From positions 1-63,894 of the IMG/VR virus record IMGVR_UViG_3300037247_001086: 63,894 nt of DNA. One strand, 5' to 3'. Positions 4,354 to 59,635 of the stretch are shown piece after piece. Under the pieces are notes generated by a model that saw nothing but the letters and a program-made list of their open reading frames with translations, made no database searches and was not told the DNA's origin. Source of the DNA: a virus. Taxonomy: Duplodnaviria > Caudoviricetes. Position 1 is the stretch's first letter. Each line of letters begins with the position of its first letter. Position numbers and translations under genes: made by a program.

Positions 4354-4358
4354 GGGGG

Positions 4359-4395
4359 AACGAGGGCGCTCAGCACGCTCTGAAACGCCCTCGTT
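4359..4395. terminator. Hairpin between convergent transcription units
   Basis: AACGAGGGCG ... CGCCCTCGTT inverted repeat at the +/- strand switch. Confidence 0.45.
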
Positions 4396-4422
4396 GGTGA
4401 ATTCCTACTTGATGTCGGCTAG

Positions 4423-4575
4423 CTATTCTTTGCAAGCGTCATACATCGGCCCTTCTTCTTTCTCTCCTTTGTCTTTGCTGAACCAGTCCTTGATCGGAGG
4501 TATTCCTATTAGGTGCCAAGCTCCGGTGAAGGCCAGCATATATAGAATTATGTGCTGCCAGATGTTGTGATCCAT
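4423..4575 (-). CDS. 50-aa membrane micro-protein (not in ORF track)
   Basis: Hand translation MDHNIWQHIILYMLAFTGAWHLIGIPPIKDWFSKDKGEKEEGPMYDACKE; AGAAAGGA RBS. Confidence 0.5.
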   Translation of the reverse strand: MDHNIWQHIILYMLAFTGAWHLIGIPPIKDWFSKDKGEKEEGPMYDACKE

Positions 4576-6109: not shown

Positions 6110-6739
6110 TTAGTACCATCCTTCTAGTTTGTTGTGCTCCCGTTGCACATAGTCTTTCATCCAACCGTCAACGATTCCACCTGTCCGGCGGTGACGGCGA
6201 TACAGCGCCAGCAGCTCTTTCATCTCGGGCCAGTTGTCCGAACAAATCGTCGGCCAGATGTCCACATAGATGAGATCGAAGTGACGGCCCTGGATTGGCG
6301 GCTGTTTGCCATCAGCCAAAATGATCCGGAGCTTCTTGTGATGGACATGAGGAGCTACCAACTCGATAACAGCCGGTTCTATCTCTAGTACCGTGACGCT
6401 CCTTACTTCCTTCTTATGGCACATAGCCAAGCTAAGCATGCCAAGGCCGAGACCGACCACGAGAACGTCACCAGCGGCTTTCTGGAGTGCATCGTAATTA
6501 CTGTTATGCTCCATCGGCGTGTCGCTCATCCAGACCTCGTCCCAAGATGGGTCGGCACCGACATCCCGAACTTGTCTCATGATGCAATATGTTCCAGGCG
6601 GGACATATGTCAGCTCGTTGGCCATCAGATCCCGAACAGTGTCTTTTTCCTTGGTGCGGTGTGTGATATAGAAGGAACCAGAGCCGCCACGTTTCGTCTC
6701 CGGTATGACTTTGGTCATGTCAGGGAATAAGCATGTCAT
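6110..6739 (-). CDS. Spermidine-synthase-like SAM-dependent transferase
   Basis: WMSDTPME, GDVLVVGLGLG, VTVLEI, FDLIYVDIW motifs. Confidence 0.7.
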   Translation of the reverse strand: MTCLFPDMTKVIPETKRGGSGSFYITHRTKEKDTVRDLMANELTYVPPGTYCIMRQVRDVGADPSWDEVWMSDTPMEHNSNYDALQKAAGDVLVVGLGLGMLSLAMCHKKEVRSVTVLEIEPAVIELVAPHVHHKKLRIILADGKQPPIQGRHFDLIYVDIWPTICSDNWPEMKELLALYRRHRRTGGIVDGWMKDYVQREHNKLEGWY

Positions 6740-7056
6740 AATTCCTCGTTCCTTTCCAGTTCCTTCTCGTATCTGTCCATGGAGGTCTCCATGTCGGCGT
6801 CTCTCATCACTTGACGGGCCACCAGTACGATACAGTCGTCTTGATGCAGAATTTGATATGGCTGATCAGCGACGATCACACAAAACGGACAGCCCCACGG
6901 CCCGCCAATATTAGGCTCCGGCTCGATGAATTTCCCTAGTGGGCAGGCGCTGTCATCCACGGCTTCCAAGATTTTGCAGAGCTGTTCGTTGGTACGCTCC
7001 GCCTCTTGGACTTCACCGTCCTCTGATGGCCGTACGAATGGGTATAGGTCTTTCAT
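6736..7056 (-). CDS. Hypothetical protein
   Basis: Coupled by TGATG/ATGA overlaps; CPFC motif. Confidence 0.55.
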   Translation of the reverse strand: MKDLYPFVRPSEDGEVQEAERTNEQLCKILEAVDDSACPLGKFIEPEPNIGGPWGCPFCVIVADQPYQILHQDDCIVLVARQVMRDADMETSMDRYEKELERNEEL

Positions 7057-7253
7057 CAGTACGCCTCCACATAATCATGCAAGAGCTGCAGAACCTCGTC
7101 GTAGGAGCCGCACTTCATGGCTCGTTCCGACCACTCCTTGGCACGGTCACGCTGGCCGTCCCGCTTCAGAGCCTTGCTGACTTGACCGATGATGGCAAAC
7201 ACGTTGCCATCGGTTCCGACCAGTTCACATTCAGGTTTCCTTATGCCTGTCAT
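7056..7253 (-). CDS. Conserved small phage protein
   Basis: LVGTDGNVFAIIG..SYDEVL pattern common in phage/plasmid hypotheticals; AAGGAG RBS. Confidence 0.7.
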   Translation of the reverse strand: MTGIRKPECELVGTDGNVFAIIGQVSKALKRDGQRDRAKEWSERAMKCGSYDEVLQLLHDYVEAY

Positions 7254-7265
7254 TTCTTTCTCCTT

Positions 7266-7391
7266 CTATCCGGCTTGCAGGAATTTCCCGCAAACGCCGC
7301 ATTTGAAGCCGTGACCCAACGCGCCCTTACTTTTGTATGGTGTGGCGTTGGCCCAACAGTCATGTCTTCTACCGTTCTTGGAAGCTGTCAT
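7266..7391 (-). CDS. 41-aa zinc-ribbon micro-protein (not in ORF track)
   Basis: Hand translation MTASKNGRRHDCWANATPYKSKGALGHGFKCGVCGKFLQAG; AAAGGAG RBS. Confidence 0.55.
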   Translation of the reverse strand: MTASKNGRRHDCWANATPYKSKGALGHGFKCGVCGKFLQAG

Positions 7392-7612
7392 TTTCGTTCT
7401 CCTTTCGCTACTTTGGCTGCCTGCCTCCGGCACCCATCGGGCATAACGAATATGTGAAGATAACGACTGGATTTAGCTGTGGTTCCTCGAGGCAACTTCA
7501 CTTTCATCTGCGCCTGATGAAAATCGCTATGCCCGATGGAGGCCGGAAACCTCCATCAGCGGTTTTGTCAGAGCCCACTACAGCCCCTCCGCCATGTCAT
7601 AAGCATCTCCTT

Positions 7613-7718
7613 TCCGGCCTTCATCGGGATTGACGGTGGCTAGGAAGGGTAGGACAGAAAGGAACGGGCGAAAGCCCCTCGCTGAAGCACCACCACCGTC
7701 AACCCGATGAAGGCCGGA
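7613..7718 (-). ncRNA. Candidate antisense sRNA: 26-bp stem with loop complementary to the capsid RBS
   Basis: Arms 7613-7639 and 7693-7718 are inverted repeats (one bulge); loop 7640-7664 is identical to 53428-53452. Confidence 0.65.
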
Positions 7719-7739
7719 GCCTTCATCTTGGACAGCGAA

Positions 7740-8150
7740 TTATTCGTCTTCCTTGTCGCCACACTCTGTACAGGAGACCGAACCTGTTTTCAGGTTGACT
7801 TCTTTACCGGCTTCAGCGTTGCAGTGGTAGCATTTCTTGCCGTGCTTTTCAAAGTCGTGTAGTGCGATTCCTACTCGAAGCATCGGCGCATAGACATCGC
7901 CACGCCAGCTATTGGAGCCGAATGAGATATCACCTTCGGCCAGCTTGTCTCTATTGAAGACCGCGACGGCGGTTTCTGAGCAGTCCACTTTGTAGAACAC
8001 GACGCCAAGCATTGGCCCTTCCTTGGGGTCGGTGAACTTGATGACGTTGAAGGGAGCGCCACCGACACCATTGCGGTGATATTCCACTTCCTCGACTTCA
8101 ATGTACTCGGCCCCTCTACCGTTTCTCTTGTACGGGTTTTCTACTCTCAT
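7740..8150 (-). CDS. Conserved hypothetical phage protein with C-terminal zinc ribbon
   Basis: YHRNGVGGAPF and NSWRGD motifs; CYHC..CTEC. Confidence 0.65.
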   Translation of the reverse strand: MRVENPYKRNGRGAEYIEVEEVEYHRNGVGGAPFNVIKFTDPKEGPMLGVVFYKVDCSETAVAVFNRDKLAEGDISFGSNSWRGDVYAPMLRVGIALHDFEKHGKKCYHCNAEAGKEVNLKTGSVSCTECGDKEDE

Positions 8151-8172
8151 TTTTCCTTGCCCCTTCCTTACT

Positions 8173-8236
8173 TGGGATACCTCATCAGGCTATGGGCTCC
8201 CACCCCACGGCGACCGGCCCGAAGGCCGGTTTCGGT
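8173..8236 (-). ncRNA. Type II hammerhead ribozyme HH1
   Basis: Minus strand: acc-GAAA-ccggcc ttcg ggccgg-TC^-gccgtggg gtgggag cccatagc-CTGATGA-ggt-a-tccca. Confidence 0.9.
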
Positions 8237-8246
8237 TAAAAGATCT

Positions 8247-8423
8247 CTACTCTTCAAGCTCAAGAGAAGTTGGCGTCTTGACAGGGCAATTGACAAACTC
8301 CCCAAACTGACGCCGCTCTAGTCGGCAACGACGACAGAGATAGCCTTCACAAGCTGTGCATTGCTTAGAAGGAGTTGGATAAACTGCTCTCCCCCCGCAG
8401 TGACGACAATATGTCAATTCCAT
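8247..8423 (-). CDS. 58-aa Cys-rich micro-protein between HH2 and HH1
   Basis: Hand translation MELTYCRHCGGRAVYPTPSKQCTACEGYLCRRCRLERRQFGEFVNCPVKTPTSLELEE; AAGGAG RBS. Confidence 0.6.
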   Translation of the reverse strand: MELTYCRHCGGRAVYPTPSKQCTACEGYLCRRCRLERRQFGEFVNCPVKTPTSLELEE

Positions 8424-8443
8424 TTCTGCTCTCCTTCTCTCTC

Positions 8444-8503
8444 GACCTACCTCATCAGCGCCAGACGGTCAGTTCTGACGGACGCCCTTGTGGGCGTTTC
8501 GGC
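8444..8503 (-). ncRNA. Type II hammerhead ribozyme HH2
   Basis: Minus strand: gcc-GAAA-cgccc acaa gggcg-TC^-cgtcaga actgaccg tctggcg-CTGATGA-ggt-a-ggtc. Confidence 0.9.
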
Positions 8504-8628
8504 TACGATAGAATCTTCACCATGTAAGCAAAGGCTTTCTCGTAGGTCTGTACGCCATATCGCTCCGGGTCTGCAACTGTGCGACGAGCGTAGTATGCTG
8601 CGGCTTTCTGGATCTGTCCCTTAGTCAT
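8503..8628 (-). CDS. 41-aa micro-protein between HH3 and HH2
   Basis: Hand translation MTKGQIQKAAAYYARRTVADPERYGVQTYEKAFAYMVKILS; AAGGAG RBS; TAG abuts HH2. Confidence 0.6.
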   Translation of the reverse strand: MTKGQIQKAAAYYARRTVADPERYGVQTYEKAFAYMVKILS

Positions 8629-8648
8629 TACTCTTCTCCTTCGATATA

Positions 8649-8707
8649 TGACCTGCCTCATCAGGCTACCGGCGGTCAGTCCGGCAACTACGCAAAAGCG
8701 TTTCGGC
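8649..8707 (-). ncRNA. Type II hammerhead ribozyme HH3
   Basis: Minus strand: gcc-GAAA-cgc tttt gcg-TA^-gttgccgg actgaccg ccggtagc-CTGATGA-ggc-a-ggtca. Confidence 0.88.
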
Positions 8708-8872
8708 TAGTTGAACCGAGGCGAGGGGTTATCGGGCTGGCGATCTTCGCCAGGTTTCGTTCCTCGTTCCGGTGGAGTGCCTTGCAGCGGGGGCTCCCAT
8801 TTGTTGTGGCTTCCGGCTGGTCTACCGCTTGGCTTGCTTGATTGGCTTTGGCCCTTTCCCTTCCCTGTTCCC

Positions 8873-8913
8873 ACTTACAATGTAAGTATACAGCGTCCCA
8901 ACAAGGAAAACAA
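8873..8913 (-). promoter_or_regulatory. Sigma70-type promoter with palindromic operator over the start site (copy 1)
   Basis: TTGTTT (8908-8913)-17 nt-TATACT (8885-8890); ACTTACA-A-TGTAAGT palindrome; duplicated near 43187-43226. Confidence 0.75.
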
Positions 8914-8965
8914 GGGTTTTTAGGGTACTCCGAAAAGTATTTTCTATTTACAAGTAGATTGTTTG

Positions 8966-9745
8966 TTAATCTAAAGGGGAGAGAAGTTCCCAGAATACGT
9001 TTTCTGAGGCTTCAGGATATGGCCCAGCTAAAATTAGACGTAACCATTCAGAACTAAAAATGTTCTCGAAAGTCTCTACAAGTTTGTCGGGGATACGCTG
9101 TTCCTTTTTATTAACGCGATTGAACATGGCTCTTTTCATATGTTGGCCGTATGCTCGAACTGTTTTCCATCGCTTATGCAATTCTCTATTGAGCTCATCA
9201 TATTTCCATTCGTTCTCTCCGTGATATATTTTGCGTCTAAGAGCCCCATGTGATTGATTAGGTGTGCTGAGAAGTACAACACCTTTTGGATGCATACGAT
9301 TTACGAGATTATCCAAAAGAATTAAGCCTGCCTGATGAGAAATGTGTTCTAGAGATTCGAAGAATAGCACCAGGTCCAACAGTTTAGACGTTGGAAGCTG
9401 AGGATTGTCGGCGAGATTTTGTTGGATAAATTGGAATCCTATTCGTTCAGCCATCATCGAACTAATAGGTATTTCTTTAGAAAGGTCGTCAACATCTACA
9501 GCAATATAGCTGGCAAGTATGTCATCTTTTTTGGCGTAATATCCCTTTATCAAAACTTGAAGAGAGGTAGCGAATCCACAACCAATATCCATTACATGGA
9601 TAGGTCTCGAACGTTCTCGCGCCATATTCATCATTTTATGAGCGGCTACTTGAAAACGTAACATATGAACCAGATCTTCCGGCCACCATTTGTATTGACT
9701 GAGATGATCCAATAATGGTCTGCGATCATTAAAGATTGTTCTCAT
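8966..9745 (-). CDS. Class I SAM-dependent methyltransferase
   Basis: VMDIGCG, IAVDVD, FESLEH, LLSTPN motifs; last gene of the modification operon. Confidence 0.8.
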   Translation of the reverse strand: MRTIFNDRRPLLDHLSQYKWWPEDLVHMLRFQVAAHKMMNMARERSRPIHVMDIGCGFATSLQVLIKGYYAKKDDILASYIAVDVDDLSKEIPISSMMAERIGFQFIQQNLADNPQLPTSKLLDLVLFFESLEHISHQAGLILLDNLVNRMHPKGVVLLSTPNQSHGALRRKIYHGENEWKYDELNRELHKRWKTVRAYGQHMKRAMFNRVNKKEQRIPDKLVETFENIFSSEWLRLILAGPYPEASENVFWELLSPLD

Positions 9746-16486: not shown

Positions 16487-16927
16487 ATGGGTGATCCGCA
16501 AATGGTACGAGGAATTGTAGAACGGTTGAAGACTATCAGCGAGGAAGTGATCACGCTGGGAGCCGAGGAGGAAATGCTGTGGAAACAATTCTACGGTTTC
16601 ATCGATGATGCTGTGGGTGCAGATCAACCCTATCGCTGGACACATCCAGATCTCAAAATGACTATTGGAAGGGTCATGGCTGAAAATAGTCCGCGCTTGG
16701 ATGTGGGGCGATTGGAAGAGATTCTGACCGATGATGAGTGGCGGCTCTGTACGAAGCAAGTTCGGATTTTTGATGCCGACCGGCTGACCGCTGAAGTGGC
16801 CGCTGGCGGTATCAAGAAAGATGATGTTCAAGCGGCTACCTCGCAGAAGCCCCCAACATCACGAAAGCACTTTCGATCGGCCAGCAAGGATGAGCTGAAG
16901 AAGCTAGAACAAGACAAGTTATCGTGA
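16487..16927 (+). CDS. Hypothetical protein
   Basis: AGGAGG RBS; first gene of the replication arm. Confidence 0.65.
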   Translation: MGDPQMVRGIVERLKTISEEVITLGAEEEMLWKQFYGFIDDAVGADQPYRWTHPDLKMTIGRVMAENSPRLDVGRLEEILTDDEWRLCTKQVRIFDADRLTAEVAAGGIKKDDVQAATSQKPPTSRKHFRSASKDELKKLEQDKLS

Positions 16928-17823
16928 TCGTTCCCGCCTTTTCTTATCTCTACACCAATCGGAAATTTCCAGCGCGGGGTATACTGGCATGGGCCGCGCT
17001 AGACGGACAAAGGTCTTCTAGGTCGTGGACTGTCGGGCATCTAGCGCGGCTCTTCAACATCTCCTTAGTGAACGCCCGTATACTATTACGAAAGGGTGAC
17101 GGTGTCTTCTGGCGGCTCACACGCCGGAACGTGATACCTTACAGCCGTAGTCGGCTGTGGGCGGTAGTGGCCAAACAGAGCAATGTTCCGGAGGAAGAAT
17201 ATGTCAACGTTCCTGAAACAGCTCTTCATTCCATCGCTTTGTCACGAGCATATCTAGCGCAACCGGCTCTGACAAGAGGGCCAAAGAAGCCGGTATCTGT
17301 GGCCGTGAGCGCTCAGCTTCTTGGATGTGGGCGTCGTGCTGTAACGACATATCGTAGCCGGTTAGCTGGTGTAGGCCGGTTAAAAATGGTTCCACAATTT
17401 GAGCGGTTGAGAGAGGAGACGATAGGACGCAAGACTCCAGCTTTTCAACCGGGAGAATTTTCAAGCAAGGGTTGGATCTACCGCCGCACCGCTGACATTG
17501 TACTGATCACCAACGGAGTCGGTGATATATTCACCTGGCCAGTCCATATCGTCAAAGGTAGGACATTGGCTCCACGAAAATATTTCACTGAAACCAAACA
17601 TCTAGAACGTTGGGTAGCTCGTGGAAAGGCTCTAGCAAAGGACGCAGTCTTGCTTGTTTTCAAAGAATGGCTACCTGTAACGAACGTTTTGAGCGCGGTA
17701 AGGGGGGAACTTCTTACTAATACTAAAGCCCTATACCACGCTGGAAACGTTCGTTTTGAACCTAACCTTGTAGGAAGTCCTGGGATAGTGTATGGTAACA
17801 GCCATCAGGTAGAGGTAGGGTAG
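16924..17823 (+). CDS. Basic protein, possible winged-HTH replication/DNA-binding protein
   Basis: Two HTH-like segments (LARLFNIS; SAQLLGCGRRAV). Confidence 0.4.
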   Translation: MIVPAFSYLYTNRKFPARGILAWAALDGQRSSRSWTVGHLARLFNISLVNARILLRKGDGVFWRLTRRNVIPYSRSRLWAVVAKQSNVPEEEYVNVPETALHSIALSRAYLAQPALTRGPKKPVSVAVSAQLLGCGRRAVTTYRSRLAGVGRLKMVPQFERLREETIGRKTPAFQPGEFSSKGWIYRRTADIVLITNGVGDIFTWPVHIVKGRTLAPRKYFTETKHLERWVARGKALAKDAVLLVFKEWLPVTNVLSAVRGELLTNTKALYHAGNVRFEPNLVGSPGIVYGNSHQVEVG

Positions 17824-31558: not shown

Positions 31559-31747
31559 ATGGCAGACGAACGACTAGAAGTGGATCTGGAGGCTGTTGAG
31601 CCTATCACCAAAATCCAAGATGTGGTAGACATCGTGAATCACGCGATGGAAGCCTTACAGCCTAAGCCCGAATATCCAGCTGGAAACAAGCAATTGGTCT
31701 TCAATGAACTGGCCACAGTATTGGATTTCTTGGGGGTGGACTGTTAG
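31559..31747 (+). CDS. Hypothetical protein whose stop abuts HH4
   Basis: AAGGAG RBS; TAG directly followed by ctGAAA. Confidence 0.55.
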   Translation: MADERLEVDLEAVEPITKIQDVVDIVNHAMEALQPKPEYPAGNKQLVFNELATVLDFLGVDC

Positions 31748-31807
31748 CTGAAACGCCCACAAGGGCGTCCGCCAGAACTGACCATCTGGCGCTGATGAGG
31801 TAGGTCA
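31747..31807 (+). ncRNA. Type II hammerhead ribozyme HH4
   Basis: gct-GAAA-cgccc acaa gggcg-TC^-cgccaga actgacca tctggcg-CTGATGA-ggt-a-ggtca; near-identical to HH2. Confidence 0.88.
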
Positions 31808-31826
31808 ACAGGAAGAAGGAAGAAAA

Positions 31827-32342
31827 ATGGGACGAGAAGCTAGACGCTCGCACCTTCAGCTAGAAGAGCTGTTGGGGGAGACGTTCTGGGGCTATCTGCT
31901 AGATGCCATCCCCTGCAAGTCCTGCAACGAGACAGGCAAGCAAGCTGATGGCGAAGGCCACTGCGTAGTCTGCGAAGGCGAAGGCAACGTTTACCCCAAG
32001 GTCACGCTGCCGTCGTACCCTGTGAAGGAGTTTCCATACGAGGGGCTTGAATACTTCGAGAATGAGTATGGCTGGCAGATGTGGGAAACGACTTCAGAGG
32101 GATCGCCCATGTCGCCGGTCTTCAAGACGCCGGAGGAGTTGGCGCGGTGGCTCGCAGACACAGGAGCTTCGGCCTTCGCGGGGATGACGGCTACCTACGA
32201 CGAGTGGCTGGGCACAATCACTGTCTCAGGAGGTGCGCCATCTGCCGTACTCACTGTTGATAGCACGGGTAAGGAGCGCATGGAATCTGGAGTAGCCGCG
32301 CTCAGTCAACCGAGGTCGGAGCCCAAGGATGGAGGCTTGTAA
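31827..32342 (+). CDS. Conserved phage protein with DnaJ-type CxxCxxxG zinc motifs
   Basis: CKSCNETG, CVVCEGEG, GWQMWETTSEGSPMSPVF. Confidence 0.7.
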   Translation: MGREARRSHLQLEELLGETFWGYLLDAIPCKSCNETGKQADGEGHCVVCEGEGNVYPKVTLPSYPVKEFPYEGLEYFENEYGWQMWETTSEGSPMSPVFKTPEELARWLADTGASAFAGMTATYDEWLGTITVSGGAPSAVLTVDSTGKERMESGVAALSQPRSEPKDGGL

Positions 32343-42765: not shown

Positions 42766-43164
42766 CTATGATTTAAGACTCCCGTCTGGCAGGACTATAA
42801 ATACTGGCTTGCCTTGTTTCAAGGCGTATCGTATGGTGGCCCATGTTCCGCTCCGTTGTACTTCAGGCCCACGAGGAGCCGCAACAAGAGCATCTGTTTC
42901 GTCAACAATGACGTGGTTACGGTCCAAATAGGGAAGCGGTTCTCGTGTTTCTGAAGCGGCCTCACAAAAGGCCCGCGCTTTGGGGTTGGTTGGCGGGTGG
43001 ATCACCACGAGTATTTTGAAACCGTTGGCTATTTCGTGGACTTCAGCATCAGCCCCAATACAATCGCCATGGTGGAGTTCTTCTTCCCCTAACAAAAGGT
43101 TCCGAACTATAGCCTTTTGCTTAGAGGTCATACCTTGGCTGGTTCCGGTAAATCCGATTTTCAT
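42766..43164 (-). CDS. SLOG/DprA-like nucleotide-binding protein
   Basis: IGFTGT, HHGDCIGAD, RNHVIVD, RSGTWATIRYA..KP. Confidence 0.8.
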   Translation of the reverse strand: MKIGFTGTSQGMTSKQKAIVRNLLLGEEELHHGDCIGADAEVHEIANGFKILVVIHPPTNPKARAFCEAASETREPLPYLDRNHVIVDETDALVAAPRGPEVQRSGTWATIRYALKQGKPVFIVLPDGSLKS

Positions 43165-43186
43165 TTGATTCCCTTCCCTGTTCCCT

Positions 43187-43226
43187 CTTACAATGTAAGT
43201 ATACATCATCCTAACAAGGAAAACAA
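43187..43226 (-). promoter_or_regulatory. Sigma70-type promoter with palindromic operator (copy 2)
   Basis: TTGTTT-17-TATACT and CTTACAATGTAAG; near copy of 8873-8913. Confidence 0.75.
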
Positions 43227-43276
43227 GGGGGGTTTTAGGGTGTCTCAGAAAATACTTTTTATTTTGTCTGTTAGGC

Positions 43277-48369: not shown

Positions 48370-51126
48370 ATGACCACTGATGAAATAGACCCCGCTGGTC
48401 GTCCTGGCGATACAGCCGTTGTCGACAGAGATCTCATCGACCCGTCCCTCGAAGAAGAATCTCTATTGCCTGGTGCTGAGGCTGGTAAATCCGTTAAGGA
48501 TGTTCCCGAAGAGACAATAGGGCAGTCCGTTCAAGAATTTCCGAAGCAGGTTGGCGCAACTCCCGGAACTACTTCTTTCCAAGATACTCTCATCTGGTTT
48601 ACAGGTCATGCAGCCGACGAATTTGAGGCGTGGGGCCGACGTCATGGCAAAAGGCGCGATAAGCAACTTAGGGATTTTATCGCGACTGAAAGCATGTTCG
48701 CCAGCGCCCTTGGAATCGTTATTATTCGCAACAGCGCCTTCAATTGGGAGGTTTCGGGAGACCCTCAGACGGCTGATATAGCCCATCAAATTCTGATTGA
48801 GGCTAATATGGGTCTCGGTTGGGAAGACTTTATCGCCAAGGTCAGTGCCGATCTGTACACGCAAGATAGCGGAGCATTTATCGAAGTCGTCAGGGACGGA
48901 AGTGACCCCGAAAGTCCTCTTGTTGGTATCAATCATCTGGACGCAGCCCGTTGTTGGCATACTGGCGATCCTACGAAGCCGGTCATCTATCAGGATGTCA
49001 AGAGCAAATATCACCTATTGGATTGGTGGAATGTTGTCACGCTTTCCGAAATGCCTACAGCCATAGAAGGGCTGTACGGTATGCAATTCTGCGCAGAAAC
49101 GCGGCTGATGATGGCGGCTCAAATCATGAAGAATATCGCTATCTATAAAGCCGAGAAATCCGGCGGGCGTAACACGCGGGCCATCCAACTGATCCAAGGG
49201 CTGACGACTGAACAGGTGAACGACGCCATTGCAGACTTACGAAATCGTGCTGATGCTCAAGGTTTCATGCGCTATATGCAGCCGGTGATTATTGGAAGTC
49301 ATGACCCGCAGGCGAAATTGGATGTTAAGACGTTGGAACTGGTCAGCTTGCCAGATGGTTTTGATGAGGACACGGCGTTCCGTCACTATATCGCTATGAT
49401 CGCGATGGCTTTTGGCGCTGATTATCAGGAGTTTGCTCCTCTTCCAGGTGGCAACCTGGGGACAAGTATGCAGAGCCAAGTCCTTCATGATAAGACCAGA
49501 GGCAAGGGGCCAGGGTTGTTCATGAAGCTGATTCAAAACGCCATGAATCAGAGGATTCTGCCGCGAAATGTGAAGTTCGAGTATGCGGAACAGGATTTGG
49601 AGGCGGAGAGAACTGAGGCTGAGGTCTCAAAGATTCGCGCCGAGACTAGAAAGATTCAGATTGAATCAACGGAGATTAATCAGGCCGAATCTCGTCAAAT
49701 GGCGGTGGACTCAGGCGATCTCCCTCAAGAATTGTTTGATGTAAATCCTGGCGGAGATATTACTCCGGTTGACACGGTTGTCCCATCGGGTGAGCCTCAT
49801 CACGCAAAAGGGGAGTTGGAGGTCTCGCCTTCTTCTAACCCTTTTGGCTCGATGACGACCGACGTTGGTACGAGACAGAAGACTGAACCGGCCAGGGCAG
49901 GCCCATTTGAAGATGACCGATTGGTAGCGGAAGGCCGTCTCCAGCGGGCTATCCTCCGAGCATTCCGTAAACATTTTGAGGCTGTCAAGAAGCGGCTCCG
50001 TCGTGAACGACGGGATGATCCTCGTTTTTCTAAAAAGGAATTGTTGGGAGATCTTGTCAATGATGAGGAGTTTTGGGGTTTGCGAAAAGAAGAGTTCATG
50101 GCAGAAGTTGGTGACCAGCCGCTGAATCTTCTGTTGGAAGGCGGACAACAGGCTGAAGCTCTAGGGCTTGTTGTTGATATGTCATTGGTCAATCAAGAAG
50201 CGTTGCGATTCAATCGACAATTCACGAATAGATGGTGGCAGGAACTTTCAACTCAGACGAGAGATGGATTGCGTATAGCGATTTCGACACATATTGAAAC
50301 GGGTGGGCCACTTCGGACTCTCAACAAGAATCTTGAGCCATTATTCGGTAAGGCGCGAGCTGAAGTTGTAGGTCGAACAGAAGTGACGCGGATGTTTGCT
50401 GAGGGAAATCGCATTGCTTATGGGCAGGCGGGTATCCAAGAGGTGGAATGGCGGACAGTTCGTGATGCCCATGTAGACCCTATTTGTGATGATCTTCATG
50501 GCCAACGGATGCCGCTTGGCCAAGAGCAAATAGTACCGCCAGCTCATCCTCGATGCCGTTGTTGGATTGCTCCTGTAGTGGGGGAGAGGCCAGTGACGGA
50601 GACCGCTTCGAGAGAATTTGAATCTGGTCATGAAGCAGACGCTTGGGGGAATGAACATTTCAGTAGAGTTTTGGGGAGAGAAAGTATCTATACAGAAGCA
50701 GAAAGAGTTGCAATCCTTGAATATCAAAGTACTGCGTATGCCGGGATAAATCGAGATATTCGAGCGGGATTTATTGACAATAGAACTGTTAGAGGTATAG
50801 ATTCTGCTATTGCAAAAGGGGCGGTTCCTGAGGATATTATAGTTTGGAGAGCGATTCGAGAAGCTCCTGAAAGTATGTTAAAATCTGATTTGGTGGGAGG
50901 CATAATCCAAGACAGAGCGGTTATGTCAACGTCATTGTTGCGGAATGTAGCGTCTGATTTTGGAGGAGATATTCTTTTGAGGATAAAAGTTCCTAGAGGT
51001 ACGCCTGCTTCATATTTTGCTGGGGGGCAGGCAGAATTACTGTTGGGAAGAGACACAGTTCTTCGTGTGTTGGAAGTAAGGAGAGTCGGAAGAAGACTTG
51101 AAATTTTAGCTGAGGTACAATTATGA
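48370..51126 (+). CDS. Portal protein fused to MuF head-morphogenesis domain and C-terminal ADP-ribosyltransferase
   Basis: Portal-like N-terminus after TerL; RAEVVGRTE..VDPIC..PPAHPRCRC (MuF); Y..IN..R, VWR, MSTSL, QAELLL (R-S-E ART). Confidence 0.85.
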   Translation: MTTDEIDPAGRPGDTAVVDRDLIDPSLEEESLLPGAEAGKSVKDVPEETIGQSVQEFPKQVGATPGTTSFQDTLIWFTGHAADEFEAWGRRHGKRRDKQLRDFIATESMFASALGIVIIRNSAFNWEVSGDPQTADIAHQILIEANMGLGWEDFIAKVSADLYTQDSGAFIEVVRDGSDPESPLVGINHLDAARCWHTGDPTKPVIYQDVKSKYHLLDWWNVVTLSEMPTAIEGLYGMQFCAETRLMMAAQIMKNIAIYKAEKSGGRNTRAIQLIQGLTTEQVNDAIADLRNRADAQGFMRYMQPVIIGSHDPQAKLDVKTLELVSLPDGFDEDTAFRHYIAMIAMAFGADYQEFAPLPGGNLGTSMQSQVLHDKTRGKGPGLFMKLIQNAMNQRILPRNVKFEYAEQDLEAERTEAEVSKIRAETRKIQIESTEINQAESRQMAVDSGDLPQELFDVNPGGDITPVDTVVPSGEPHHAKGELEVSPSSNPFGSMTTDVGTRQKTEPARAGPFEDDRLVAEGRLQRAILRAFRKHFEAVKKRLRRERRDDPRFSKKELLGDLVNDEEFWGLRKEEFMAEVGDQPLNLLLEGGQQAEALGLVVDMSLVNQEALRFNRQFTNRWWQELSTQTRDGLRIAISTHIETGGPLRTLNKNLEPLFGKARAEVVGRTEVTRMFAEGNRIAYGQAGIQEVEWRTVRDAHVDPICDDLHGQRMPLGQEQIVPPAHPRCRCWIAPVVGERPVTETASREFESGHEADAWGNEHFSRVLGRESIYTEAERVAILEYQSTAYAGINRDIRAGFIDNRTVRGIDSAIAKGAVPEDIIVWRAIREAPESMLKSDLVGGIIQDRAVMSTSLLRNVASDFGGDILLRIKVPRGTPASYFAGGQAELLLGRDTVLRVLEVRRVGRRLEILAEVQL

Positions 51127-53395: not shown

Positions 53396-53459
53396 CAGCG
53401 CAGCGGAACGGAGTTAGACCTATACCACTAGGAAGGGTAGGACAGAAAGGAAATTGCTC

Positions 53460-54926
53460 ATGAGTCTAGAGGAACAGATGGCCGCTTTGCTGTTGCCACA
53501 TCTACAAAAGGCGCAGGCCGCAGCATATGGCATCAAGGCTGATCAGGTAGGTGTCAAACATGATGCCTCTGGGACGCCGATTGCTATCGGTTATAGTCAT
53601 GGCCCTGGCGGGGTGTTTACTTTCCCAGGTGTAGACCAAAAGGTGATGCATACTGTCGTTGGGAACATTGGTATCCTAGGCCAGCTTCCTACGACGCCAA
53701 GTGTGTTCACCAATCCAGTCTACCAGATTATCACTGGTGTTCAGGACTCCGTAGGTGCTGAGAAAGTCGAGGTGTGTGACAACGCACCCACGGCTGGTCT
53801 GATCAAAACTTGTAAGACAACTGCGCCGTTTGGCCGGTATGAGCGGGCGACTGGCGAGTTGGAACTGAACCGGCTCGGCCAGCAGAACGACCGTGCCGAT
53901 CCGATGGATCTCACCCTACAGGGGTCTCCTATCGCTCAGTCAGGGATCTTTACGACTGGCCCTGGCGATCCGGCGACACCTACTGATCTGCTGAATAATG
54001 AAGTCAGCAGGAAGTTCTGGGAGCTGGCTATCGCGCTGCACCGGCTGTTGTCGATACAGCTCTGGCAGGGTGATCCAGCGAACAACTCTGCTGGAGGTGG
54101 CAGCAAGGAATTGACTGGTTTTGACCAGCTGATCAACACTGGTTATGTCGATGTTGAGACCGGCACGGCTTGTGTCAGCGTTGACAGCGACCTCAAGGAC
54201 TTCAATTTCCAACGTATCGATGACTTCGGGACGCAGCTTGTTGATAACCTGAGTTACATGGTACGGACGCGTCGAGATCTTGCGTTCCGTACTGGTGTCG
54301 CTCCGGTTCGTTTCGTTTTAGCGATGCGACCAGAATTGTTCTGGGAGCTTACGGCTGTGTGGCCGTGTTCTTATCTCACATATCGCTGTCAGTTGACTGG
54401 CAATGAGCGGCTCAATATTGATGGGGCGGAGCAGACGCGGATGCGCGACGAAATGCGCGTCGGTAGGTTCTTGCTTATCGATGGTGAGCGTATCGATGTG
54501 GTGCTGGATGATGGCATTGCACTTGATACTACGACTACGAACGCCAACGTGACCGAAGGTTGTTCCGCGAGCGACATCTATCTGATCCCGATGAGTATTC
54601 TTGGTGGTCAGTCGGTGACGTTCATGGAGTACTTCGATTACACGAACCCGTCAGCTGCCGCAGCTCTGGCTGATAACCTGACACTTGGTCGGGTGGAAGG
54701 GCCGTGGATCACCACGGCGCGTCAGACCAACTGGTGTATCGTATGGCAGACCAAAGTAGAACCACGGTTAGTCATGCGTACACCTTGGCTGGCAGCTCGT
54801 TTGCAGAACGTGATGTACTGCCCGCTGCAGAACGCTCGACAGCCGTTCCCGGACGACCCGTACTTCATCGATGGTGGAGTTACGAACCGTCCTGGCCCCA
54901 GCCATTTCGCGCTTTGGCAGGATTAA
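53460..54926 (+). CDS. Major capsid protein
   Basis: About 490 aa after the scaffold, strong AGAAAGGA RBS, followed by a hairpin. Confidence 0.75.
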   Translation: MSLEEQMAALLLPHLQKAQAAAYGIKADQVGVKHDASGTPIAIGYSHGPGGVFTFPGVDQKVMHTVVGNIGILGQLPTTPSVFTNPVYQIITGVQDSVGAEKVEVCDNAPTAGLIKTCKTTAPFGRYERATGELELNRLGQQNDRADPMDLTLQGSPIAQSGIFTTGPGDPATPTDLLNNEVSRKFWELAIALHRLLSIQLWQGDPANNSAGGGSKELTGFDQLINTGYVDVETGTACVSVDSDLKDFNFQRIDDFGTQLVDNLSYMVRTRRDLAFRTGVAPVRFVLAMRPELFWELTAVWPCSYLTYRCQLTGNERLNIDGAEQTRMRDEMRVGRFLLIDGERIDVVLDDGIALDTTTTNANVTEGCSASDIYLIPMSILGGQSVTFMEYFDYTNPSAAAALADNLTLGRVEGPWITTARQTNWCIVWQTKVEPRLVMRTPWLAARLQNVMYCPLQNARQPFPDDPYFIDGGVTNRPGPSHFALWQD

Positions 54927-57544: not shown

Positions 57545-58269
57545 TGGCAAACGTTCTAAGTGTCGAGCCCGGTGCTACTGACAAACACTACAAACATTCC
57601 GGGTTCACCACTACCATTGACGCCAGCTACGCGTCGCCAGCCGACTCTCCCACAGGCATCACCTGGGATGGTACAAATGTCATCTCCGCCGACAGCAATG
57701 CCGACAAGCACTACAAACACTCGGGGTTCAGTTCCACTATCGACGCCAGCTACGCATCGCCAGAGGACTCTTCTTGGGGCATCACCTGGGACGGTACGAA
57801 TGTTCTCTCAGCCGATTTCAAATCTGCTGCCAACAAGCACTACAAGCATTCGGGCTTCACCACGACCATCGACGCCAGTTACACCAGTCCTTCCACCTCT
57901 CCCCGTGGCATAAGCGAAGATGGTACGGATGTCCTCTCCGCCGACAGCAATGCCGACAAGCACTACAAGCACTCGGGCTTCTCCGCCACCATCACCAGCA
58001 GCTACGCCAGCCCAGCAGCAACTCCTCGTGGCATCACTTGGGACAGCGCAAATGTCATCTCTGCTGATAGTGCTGATGACAAGCACTACAAGCACTCGGG
58101 CTTCTCCGCCACCATCACCAGCAGCTACGCTTCACCTGGCGCTGCCCCTTCGGGCATCACCTGGGATGGGCGACACGCTGGGGTGGTCGATGATGGTCAA
58201 GAGTTTGCTGGCACTCGAGTGGAAACCCGACAGCTTTACCACTTGGCCCGAAAAGTGGTGGCCTATTAG
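57544..58269 (+). CDS. Five-repeat beta-propeller protein
   Basis: Five 41-43 aa repeats NVxSAD..DKHYKHSGF..TI..SY.SP...P.GITWDG. Confidence 0.8.
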   Translation: MANVLSVEPGATDKHYKHSGFTTTIDASYASPADSPTGITWDGTNVISADSNADKHYKHSGFSSTIDASYASPEDSSWGITWDGTNVLSADFKSAANKHYKHSGFTTTIDASYTSPSTSPRGISEDGTDVLSADSNADKHYKHSGFSATITSSYASPAATPRGITWDSANVISADSADDKHYKHSGFSATITSSYASPGAAPSGITWDGRHAGVVDDGQEFAGTRVETRQLYHLARKVVAY

Positions 58270-58648: not shown

Positions 58649-59635
58649 ATGTTGAACTATTATCTCTGGCAGTATCAAGCTAAAGCAGAACCGTTCCCTG
58701 ATATTTCTGTTCCTGATTACGGTTGGTTTGTTCAGGGACCAGATGTTGTACGAGCTCCAACGAGACCTGAAGGCGAGATTGTAGCTCCTTTAGGCGATCA
58801 TGAAGATCTCATTTCTGACTTTAGCTGGTTTGTTCAAGAGCCAGACGTCATGCGCCCGCGCCACCAAACGAGCGAAGGGCTGTTTACAAGAGGACGAGAT
58901 AATTCGGAATTAGCTCCGTCGTTTGATTGGTTTGTCCAACATCCAGAGCCTCTGCCGCGTCCGACAAGGCCGGACGGAATGTTTGCCCTTGTTGAGTTTA
59001 GTGTTCCAATTCCTCCAGCTATTCCCGACATTGATTGGAACATCCAGGAACCCGATGTCGTCAGGCCGCGCCACCAAACGGACGAAGGGTTGTTCGTCCG
59101 TGGGCGTGATAATACGGAACTGGCTCCCGAGTTCGATTGGTTCGTTCAAGAACCTGATGTGATGCGGGCTCCTACCCGACCAGAGGGTACGTTTGTTCGT
59201 GGTCTTGATAATATAGAGATTGCCCCTGACTTTGGCTGGTTTGTCCAGCAGGCCGATGTCATTCGTTCTAGGCATCTGGTTCGGCCAGGATTATTCGTTC
59301 AAGACCTGTTAGTCATCACTGTTGTTCTGGACTTCTCTTGGTTCATTCAGGGGCCAGATGTAGTGAGGCGTCCGACAAGGCCGCATGGATTTGAAGCACG
59401 TCCTCTCTTGATTCTGGTTGCGCCTGTCCTAGATCTAGTTTTTGAGATTAGAGTTTGTCTCCAATTAGATGAGTTGGAAATTAACCGACTGCTACCGAAT
59501 CCAAGCGGGTTCCTTGCCATGAGAGACAATGAGCCAGACGCCAGTGGCTATATCAAAGAGGATGACGGTTGCGGTTCTTTGTCCGGAATCGATGATGATT
59601 TGCCATCACCGAGCGGCTACAAGAAACCTCCTTAG
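58649..59635 (+). CDS. Repeat protein, seven ~34-aa units
   Basis: F.WFVQ.PDV.R units alternating PTRPxG and RHxxxxG. Confidence 0.75.
   Translation: MLNYYLWQYQAKAEPFPDISVPDYGWFVQGPDVVRAPTRPEGEIVAPLGDHEDLISDFSWFVQEPDVMRPRHQTSEGLFTRGRDNSELAPSFDWFVQHPEPLPRPTRPDGMFALVEFSVPIPPAIPDIDWNIQEPDVVRPRHQTDEGLFVRGRDNTELAPEFDWFVQEPDVMRAPTRPEGTFVRGLDNIEIAPDFGWFVQQADVIRSRHLVRPGLFVQDLLVITVVLDFSWFIQGPDVVRRPTRPHGFEARPLLILVAPVLDLVFEIRVCLQLDELEINRLLPNPSGFLAMRDNEPDASGYIKEDDGCGSLSGIDDDLPSPSGYKKPP

Follow-up and report, generated by a model that had tools for sequence, protein, structure and literature searches.

A hairpin in the minus-strand gene arm of an uncultured tailed phage holds in its loop a 25-nt segment that, as minus-strand RNA, would be the exact complement of the leader of the phage's own major capsid gene, Shine-Dalgarno (SD) sequence included. 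Our preferred reading, which we put forward tentatively and with a little less than even confidence, is that this hairpin, H1, is a trans-acting antisense RNA against that leader. The window, that is, the whole stretch of DNA that was analysed, is the IMG/VR virus record IMGVR_UViG_3300037247_001086, which is 63,894 bp long and ~60% complete. The coordinates of the features are collected in Table 1.

The plus-strand 25-mer has only two matches in the window even when up to three mismatches are allowed, one in H1 and the other, 45.8 kb away, in the capsid leader. In 100 shuffles the mean number of copies was 0.00, and two or more matches were found in 0/100. No dispersed exact repeat in the window is longer than the 25-mer, which ranks first among the nine repeats of at least 17 nt. 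When 7254-7739 was compared with the window by short-word BLAST, it gave the only significant match (E 2.6e-8), the next being 14 nt long (E 0.095). The original prediction had placed an otherwise unrepeated 25-mer at these two sites and had proposed a self-BLAST as a check on its uniqueness; the mismatch search and the shuffles bore out the first, and the single significant BLAST match agreed with the second. That the match lies far beyond chance is confirmed. We rejected misassembly as its source, because the 25-mer stands between two mutually complementary arms and because an independent assembly of the run spans 6500-9500 in one piece with 0 differences.

The duplication covers the transcribed leader only, and the sequence upstream of the capsid leader has no copy at H1; a role at the RNA level therefore fits better than a copied promoter. 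Parts of the 25-mer recur at other starts. A 12-nt part of it is the ribosome-binding site (RBS) of a small minus-strand ORF starting at 4575, and GGGTAGG, which has 13 matches in the window vs 5.45 +/- 2.19 expected, lies inside the capsid leader and just before the starts at 48370 (portal), 51665 (a 576-aa gene) and 17840 (helicase). The GGGTAGG core had in fact been predicted upstream of the portal and of the following gene, which we call the 576-aa gene. Because of these shared stretches, weaker pairing of the H1 loop with other leaders is possible.

At its target the complementarity comprises 25/25 bases of the ribosome-binding region, and the SD, GAAAGGAA, ends 7 nt before the capsid ATG at 53460. 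The claim that the 25-mer spans the SD of the gene starting at this ATG thus holds, with the copy lying at -32 to -8. The capsid leader is a 64-nt intergenic segment that is predicted to be unstructured (z +0.99). When the H1 loop was paired in silico with the 2184 candidate initiation regions of the window, its best partner was the capsid region (-56.7 kcal/mol vs a mean of -23.2, sd 5.7), so the loop-versus-leader comparison that the original prediction had proposed put the capsid region at the top. By eye, a TATACC lies just before the 25-mer at the capsid gene. One might speculate that, if this were a -10 box, the 25-mer would account for almost all of the 5' UTR, and its winding into a closed loop would then be easier.

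The capsid protein itself has no Pfam, PHROG or PDB sequence match and none in the phage database; 584 metagenomic homologues were found (P0002 and P0003, 82% identical), and the same N-terminus (ATGAGTCTAGAAGAAG...) opens the capsid homologues in two related loci, L009 and L010. An AlphaFold model built on 43 homologues (pLDDT 72.9, pTM 0.71) was compared with the PDB by Foldseek, giving a probability of 1.00, a best E of 5.8e-10 and 325 matches at E <= 0.001, the top ones all being phage capsids. The genes in this part of the window stand in the order terminase, portal, 576-aa gene, capsid gene. Because of the HK97-fold structure match and this terminase-portal-576-aa gene order, the call of a major capsid gene is justified, and the identity first proposed for the target stands.

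Table 1. Positions of H1, its sister hairpin, neighbouring minus-strand features and the capsid target in the window
Feature	Position	Strand	Description
41-aa ORF with SD	7266..7391	-	just after H2
H2	7426..7547	-	24-bp stem (88% paired), 74-nt loop, 16-nt stem base TCCGGCnnnCATCGGG
Small 5' hairpin of H2	7534..7556	-	GATGGAGG / CCTCCATC; -18.7 kcal/mol, z -3.2
H1	7613..7718	-	26-bp stem (16 + 10 bp, one bulge), 53-nt loop
Anti-RBS loop segment	7640..7664	-	as minus-strand RNA, would be exactly complementary to the capsid leader
GGGC-GAAA-GCCC small hairpin	7666..7677		in the H1 loop; 3' half lost in the relative
Small 9-bp 5' hairpin of H1	7708..7729	-	5'-flank copy GATGAAGGC + H1 5' arm; -17.9 kcal/mol, z -4.3
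136-aa gene	7740..8150	-	C-terminal CxxC...CxxC; stop codon 22 nt before H1
Type II hammerhead	8171..8237	-	41.1 bits; lies just 5' of the 136-aa gene's RBS
Type II hammerhead	8441..8504	-	44.2 bits; lies 5' of the RBS of a 58-aa zinc-ribbon-like ORF
Hammerhead-like	8647..8708	-	22 bits, upstream of the RBS of a 41-aa ORF
Promoter-like element	8856..8916	-	61 nt, TTGTTT-17-TATACT (by eye)
Target copy of the 25-mer	53428..53452	+	-32 to -8 of the capsid gene, including SD GAAAGGAA
Major capsid protein gene	53460..54926	+	488 aa, HK97 fold

The stem of H1 pairs 7613-7628 with 7703-7718 (16 bp) and 7630-7639 with 7693-7702 (10 bp), with A7629 bulged, and the 25-mer makes up the first 25 of the 53 loop bases; the pairing of 7613-7718 thus agrees with the 26-bp stem and the loop placement that had been described. 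In minus-strand RNA the anti-RBS segment directly adjoins the 3' arm of the stem. The predicted folding energy of H1 is -70.7 kcal/mol (z -7.3) for the minus strand and -64.4 kcal/mol (z -6.2) for the plus strand. The original prediction had the anti-RBS displayed in the loop, and its position there is correct, but the segment is not freely exposed: the predicted fold pairs about half of its bases with the remaining, purine-rich half of the loop and leaves 7-9 nt open, namely CUUCCUA and a few others. Folded alone, the loop is weakly structured (z -1.0). The 5' flank of H1, GATGAAGGC, is a short copy of H1's own 3' arm.

Other identities for the hairpin were considered. An intrinsic terminator was rejected, since the combination of a GC-rich stem and a U run is absent and the RNA 3' of the stem reads AAAGGAGAUGCUUAUG; the terminator scan placed a weak site inside the H1 loop only, among 5 sites overall vs 3.5 expected. 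A hammerhead variant in H1 or in its sister hairpin, H2, was likewise rejected, because the cores do not fit. A search of 7200-9000 with Rfam 15 at E <= 10 put H1 and H2 in no family, the only match on the two hairpins being noise (MIR7510, 18.3 bits vs 93).

A second contig from the same run, 3067 nt long and with a depth of 4.4 (vs 11.4 for the window phage), matches the window at 7640-7672 only, where 32 of the 33 bases are kept. By eye, its 30-nt flanks are ~72% like the H1 5' arm and ~65% like the far loop/3' arm start, with letters in the expected places (TCCGGC...CATCG...GGTGG; ...CCTC...CTGAA...CCACCG). Judged by its letters, this contig is a diverged, lower-coverage relative in the same sample that carries the same hairpin. 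Because 32/33 bases are kept in the loop vs ~65-72% in the flanks, the antisense segment appears to be more conserved than the stem. The GGGC-GAAA-GCCC hairpin is lost in the relative. This small hairpin had been predicted at 7666-7677, and it is present there; its reading as a GNRA tetraloop, however, applies to the plus strand only, and it is not kept.

The relative also bears on whether the H1 copy is a mere relic, in which a patch of the capsid leader was copied into the loop by template switching or illegitimate recombination and has no function. Perfect identity with sharp edges is what one expects of a recent copy, and the window holds a single such pair. However, copying a patch of 25 nt takes two crossovers in a span of that length, and the patch is present in the diverged relative with drifted flanks; it is therefore not recent and appears to be under constraint. 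We consider a functionless relic very improbable.

Beyond this sample, 28 loci with related capsids were found in IMG/VR, the best at 66% identity, and none of these 28 virus records has 11 or more bases of the 25-mer. The 16-nt stem motif occurs in them at chance level (2 single hits vs 1 control). In the whole records of 4 of the 28 loci there was no capsid-leader repeat and no like hairpin; the other dispersed repeats in those four are terminator or promoter modules. When 21 query proteins were searched against the same four records, the small genes around H1 had no homologues except for a weak m8423 match (E 0.004). A single-protein search for related loci returned one distant locus for the capsid (26% identity) and none for the 136-aa gene. 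The 22-mer core of the 25-mer, the stem-arm pattern and a 27-nt string from the loose end of the relative each gave 0 matches in IMG/VR. The stem-arm pattern had two matches in JGI metagenomes, which we rejected because both lie in long perfect palindromes that resemble assembly artefacts. A looser stem-arm pattern had 48 matches in GTDB genomes, 19 of them one conserved Sorangium locus; these too were rejected, 47 having at most 16 paired end positions (by script) and the remaining one, L074, being a palindrome at a contig start.

The window phage is a tailed phage in which a plus-strand arm for replication and head/tail functions encodes a helicase, DnaB, DNA polymerase, a UvsX-like recombinase, the large terminase and a portal-MuF fusion, while a minus-strand arm at ~4.4-16 kb encodes methyltransferases, a DegT-type aminotransferase and thymidylate synthase. 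The window (~60% of the genome) contains no integrase or resolvase and 0 tRNA or tmRNA genes, and the DNA of 7200-8950 has no match in the phage database. A search for sequencing runs that contain the window returned one, a marine-sediment DNA metagenome that is probably the source sample, and no RNA run. The portal-MuF fusion, a 918-aa protein encoded at 48370-51126, combines a portal-like part, a Mu F-like part (PF04233) and an ADP-ribosyltransferase part (PF03496, E 1.1e-17) in a single reading frame; in the four relatives searched, the matches to its portal and Mu F parts lie apart from each other. Tandem repeats lie within late plus-strand ORFs at 57573-58191 and 58710-59361 (three copies of ~244 nt; six copies of a ~100-nt unit) and are likely to specify repeat domains in tail or fibre proteins.

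H1 lies within the minus-strand arm, and all the indirect signs, namely gene orientation, codon use, hammerheads and a promoter-like repeat, point to a minus-strand transcript that would include it. Read from this strand, the RNA would carry UUCCUUUCUGUCCUACCCUUCCUAG, the complement of the capsid leader, as had been predicted. In the codon test the minus-strand ORFs with SDs scored +0.138 (m8150), +0.187 (m7253) and +0.169 (m7056), with the training ORFs at 0.07-0.24, whereas five of the six overlapping plus-strand ORFs scored -0.011 to -0.199. None of the plus-strand ORFs matches Pfam at E <= 0.01, and the one match within the 0.1 limit (E 0.057) reaches 14.1 bits vs a cut-off of 27. For the 136-aa gene, a search of the ESM Atlas returned nothing above 0.86, which we treat as leads only. 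The 61-nt promoter-like element recurs at 43169-43229 (93% identical) before another minus-strand gene. This gene, at 42766-43164 on the minus strand, stands alone within the plus arm, and its product weakly resembles DprA/SLOG, with a Pfam match under the cut-off (PF02481, E 0.012). The 61-nt element also contains a TTACAATGTAA palindrome and a purine-rich leader, and a like element (...TTACAAATGTAAC...) is found four times in a related complete phage, G004.

The ribozymes that had been predicted upstream of H1 are there: with a gathering score of 37 bits for Hammerhead_II (RF02276), the copies at 44.2 and 41.1 bits belong to the family, and the third, at 22.0 bits, falls short of it. The two members have the CUGAUGA and GAAA cores; all three copies work in minus-strand RNA only. 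A plus-strand type II hammerhead lies at 31746-31809, immediately 5' of an SD and a small ORF, and the hammerhead with its downstream leader at 8420-8505 is duplicated in inverted form at 31745-31830 (86 nt, 84%); because of this inverted orientation, both are sense in their own arms. The idea that the upstream ribozymes help to release the RNA is weakened. The nearest hammerhead ends at 8171, 453 nt upstream of H1, with a 136-codon gene between, so a hammerhead cut would leave an mRNA with H1 in its 3' part and not a small RNA.

The strand is also the point on which to weigh a role for the 25-mer in the sense orientation, as DNA or plus-strand RNA, in which a late regulator or a translational repressor would bind it, with the H1 copy a second site or a decoy. 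Both copies have the same orientation, the plus strand of H1 also folds strongly (z -6.2) and has the GNRA tetraloop hairpin, and conservation of the loop in the relative fits any sequence-specific role. There is, however, no sign of plus-strand expression at H1 in the codon and Pfam results given above, and by eye the plus-strand tail genes stop at a hairpin at ~4358-4398, before the minus arm. Furthermore, the 25-mer has only two copies in 64 kb and no dyad symmetry, its SD copy within H1 is followed by no start codon, and the GNRA hairpin is lost in the relative. A sense-strand role is, in our judgement, unlikely.

H1 is not alone in its gene arm. H2 shares with it the 16-nt stem base TCCGGCnnnCATCGGG and has a different loop, so the hairpin forms a small family. 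As with H1, the sequence before H2, GATGGAGG, is a short copy of H2's own 3' arm, and the small 5' hairpins would form first during transcription and compete with the long stems. The minimum-energy fold of the 361-nt gap contains both H1 and H2 (z -6.3). The H2 loop has no match in the window and no outstanding partner among the 2184 initiation regions; if it has a target, this may be in the ~40% of the genome that the window lacks. Between the two hairpins, at 7567-7599 on the minus strand, is a 10-codon ORF (MTWRRGCSGL) with an SD and a codon score of -0.27, around which the H1 3' arm is also able to pair with the H2 5' arm (18 nt, 94%). Another long inverted repeat, with arms of 20-27 nt and 23-43 nt between them, lies at 17676-17758, inside or at the end of the ORF 16924-17823; its sequence is unrelated to H1 and H2.

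Both hairpins lie in minus-strand gene junctions directly before an SD, like the three upstream hammerheads, and with 26 bp in H1 and 24 bp in H2 each offers in its junction the about two turns of double-stranded RNA that an RNase III-type site takes. They could accordingly be only intercistronic hairpins for processing or stabilisation, like the early RNase III sites of T7, with a 25-mer that plays no role in trans. Stems of this length would suffice for a double-strand-specific nuclease, the common stem base with its competing 5' hairpin resembles a processing or folding device, and H2 has no target in the window. Such a role leaves the exact 25-nt match to the capsid leader unexplained, and the relative, which keeps 32/33 bases of the loop and ~72% of the stem arm, shows the reverse of what a pure processing stem would. 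We give processing as the sole function a low probability.

In our preferred, antisense reading of H1, the minus-strand operon would be read by the host polymerase and the hammerheads would cut the transcript into gene-length mRNAs. H1 would stay in the 3' part of the mRNA of the 136-aa gene or be excised at its long stem; the 26-bp stem would protect the element and might also be processed by an RNase III-type nuclease specific for double strands, releasing the upper part as a small RNA. The open bases CUUCCUA would then seed pairing with the unstructured capsid leader, and the full 25-bp duplex would hide the SD. RNase III needs roughly two helical turns of double-stranded RNA. Since the 25-bp duplex is just over this requirement, it could lead to irreversible cleavage of the capsid mRNA. 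Pairing would thus set a threshold or a delay on capsid synthesis, or cross-silence co-infecting related phages that share the leader. Transcription of H1 from the minus strand, its processing, pairing in vivo and repression are steps that we infer. Taken together, the original prediction of a trans-acting small RNA that blocks the capsid gene is a plausible proposal with partial support: it keeps its complementarity, its target, a conserved loop and the predicted minus strand, but not the release by ribozymes.

Several points count against the antisense reading. The two strands of H1 differ little in how well they fold (z -7.3 and -6.2), part of the anti-RBS, about half, is masked in the loop, H2 lacks a target in the window, and only the plus strand has the GNRA loop. 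With the loop closed by 26 bp of stem, winding 25 bp around a long mRNA would be difficult for as long as the stem is neither opened nor cut. In addition, 25 nt of perfect complementarity exceeds what a trans-acting small RNA needs, and a recent copy could be another possibility.

A broader proposal, which we regard as rather doubtful, is that H1 and H2 are modular "display hairpin" cassettes with an exchangeable loop of at least 25 nt copied from a late-gene leader, programmable silencers with which the phage would time its own head genes and stop co-infecting relatives from making capsid. Each cassette would consist of the conserved stem base and the competing 5' hairpin, and the 25-bp duplex would be passed to a double-strand RNase. 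The relative in the same sample does share the 25-mer. If this proposal is true, the hairpins would be an RNA-only system for superinfection or competition.

Antisense regulators of phages are known mainly from a few temperate model phages, in which they control immunity genes, and in the open-access literature we found no case of a phage small RNA that targets a capsid RBS. If the antisense reading of H1 is true, a phage RNA dedicated to this task can gate late structural genes at the level of translation, its carrier hairpin may serve as a scaffold for reuse, and such RNAs could act between related phages. The setting would be an uncultured phage that also has hammerheads proposed to cut its transcripts, and the 106-nt hairpin and the 64-nt leader make a testable sequence pair.

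Among known systems, c4 of P1 and P7, sar of P22 and OOP of lambda come nearest in how they work, and the early antisense transcripts over the structural genes of PAK_P3 are near as well. The c4 antisense RNA of P1 and P7 acts in trans, is cut from a longer transcript and pairs with a distant ribosome-binding region; it is matured by RNase P, pairs through two short blocks, and controls an antirepressor operon and immunity. Like c4, the proposed H1 RNA would pair through a short complementary stretch with an RBS elsewhere on the same genome. Unlike c4, its target would be the leader of the major capsid gene, the pairing would form a single block of 25 nt, a 26-bp hairpin is the carrier, and H1 is known here from sequence alone. 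Other small antisense RNAs of phages, some of them acting on an RBS, are sar of P22, OOP of lambda and the CI RNA of P4, and their long duplexes are cut by RNase III. The proposed H1 RNA would likewise act by antisense pairing, but sar and OOP are encoded in cis on the strand opposite their target, whereas H1 lies far from its own. The RNase III sites of T7 early mRNA are intercistronic hairpins in a polycistronic transcript, for which, to our knowledge, there is no trans target. H1 and H2 are intercistronic hairpins as well, with a cleavage that is only predicted, and H1 differs in having a candidate target in trans.

According to Perreault et al. 2011 (PMC3088659), arrays of type II hammerheads in phages flank single genes, implying that a long transcript is cut to gene-length mRNAs. 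The three ribozymes upstream of H1 fit such arrays and are ordinary Hammerhead_II, and H1 and H2 are not hammerheads. The VIPR guide RNAs (bioRxiv 10.64898/2026.04.26.720920) are phage-encoded targeting RNAs in conflicts between phages; the vrRNAs have 9-16 tandem YNNGG repeats and need the Vipr protein, and some of their arrays are interspersed with hammerheads. H1 resembles these guides in being a proposed targeting RNA of a phage near hammerheads. A vrRNA was rejected, because by eye H1, H2 and the segments between the hammerheads, which hold small ORFs with SDs, lack these defining repeats and show no 5-nt GGY periodicity. For the Pseudomonas phage PAK_P3, the authors propose that early antisense RNA shuts down the late structural genes (PMC4933390). 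In PAK_P3, 19 of the 20 antisense RNAs are intragenic and regarded as cis-encoded, and two small RNAs have matches of 11 nt only. The H1 proposal resembles the antisense RNAs of PAK_P3 in aiming at a late structural gene and differs from them in acting in trans through a 25-nt match.
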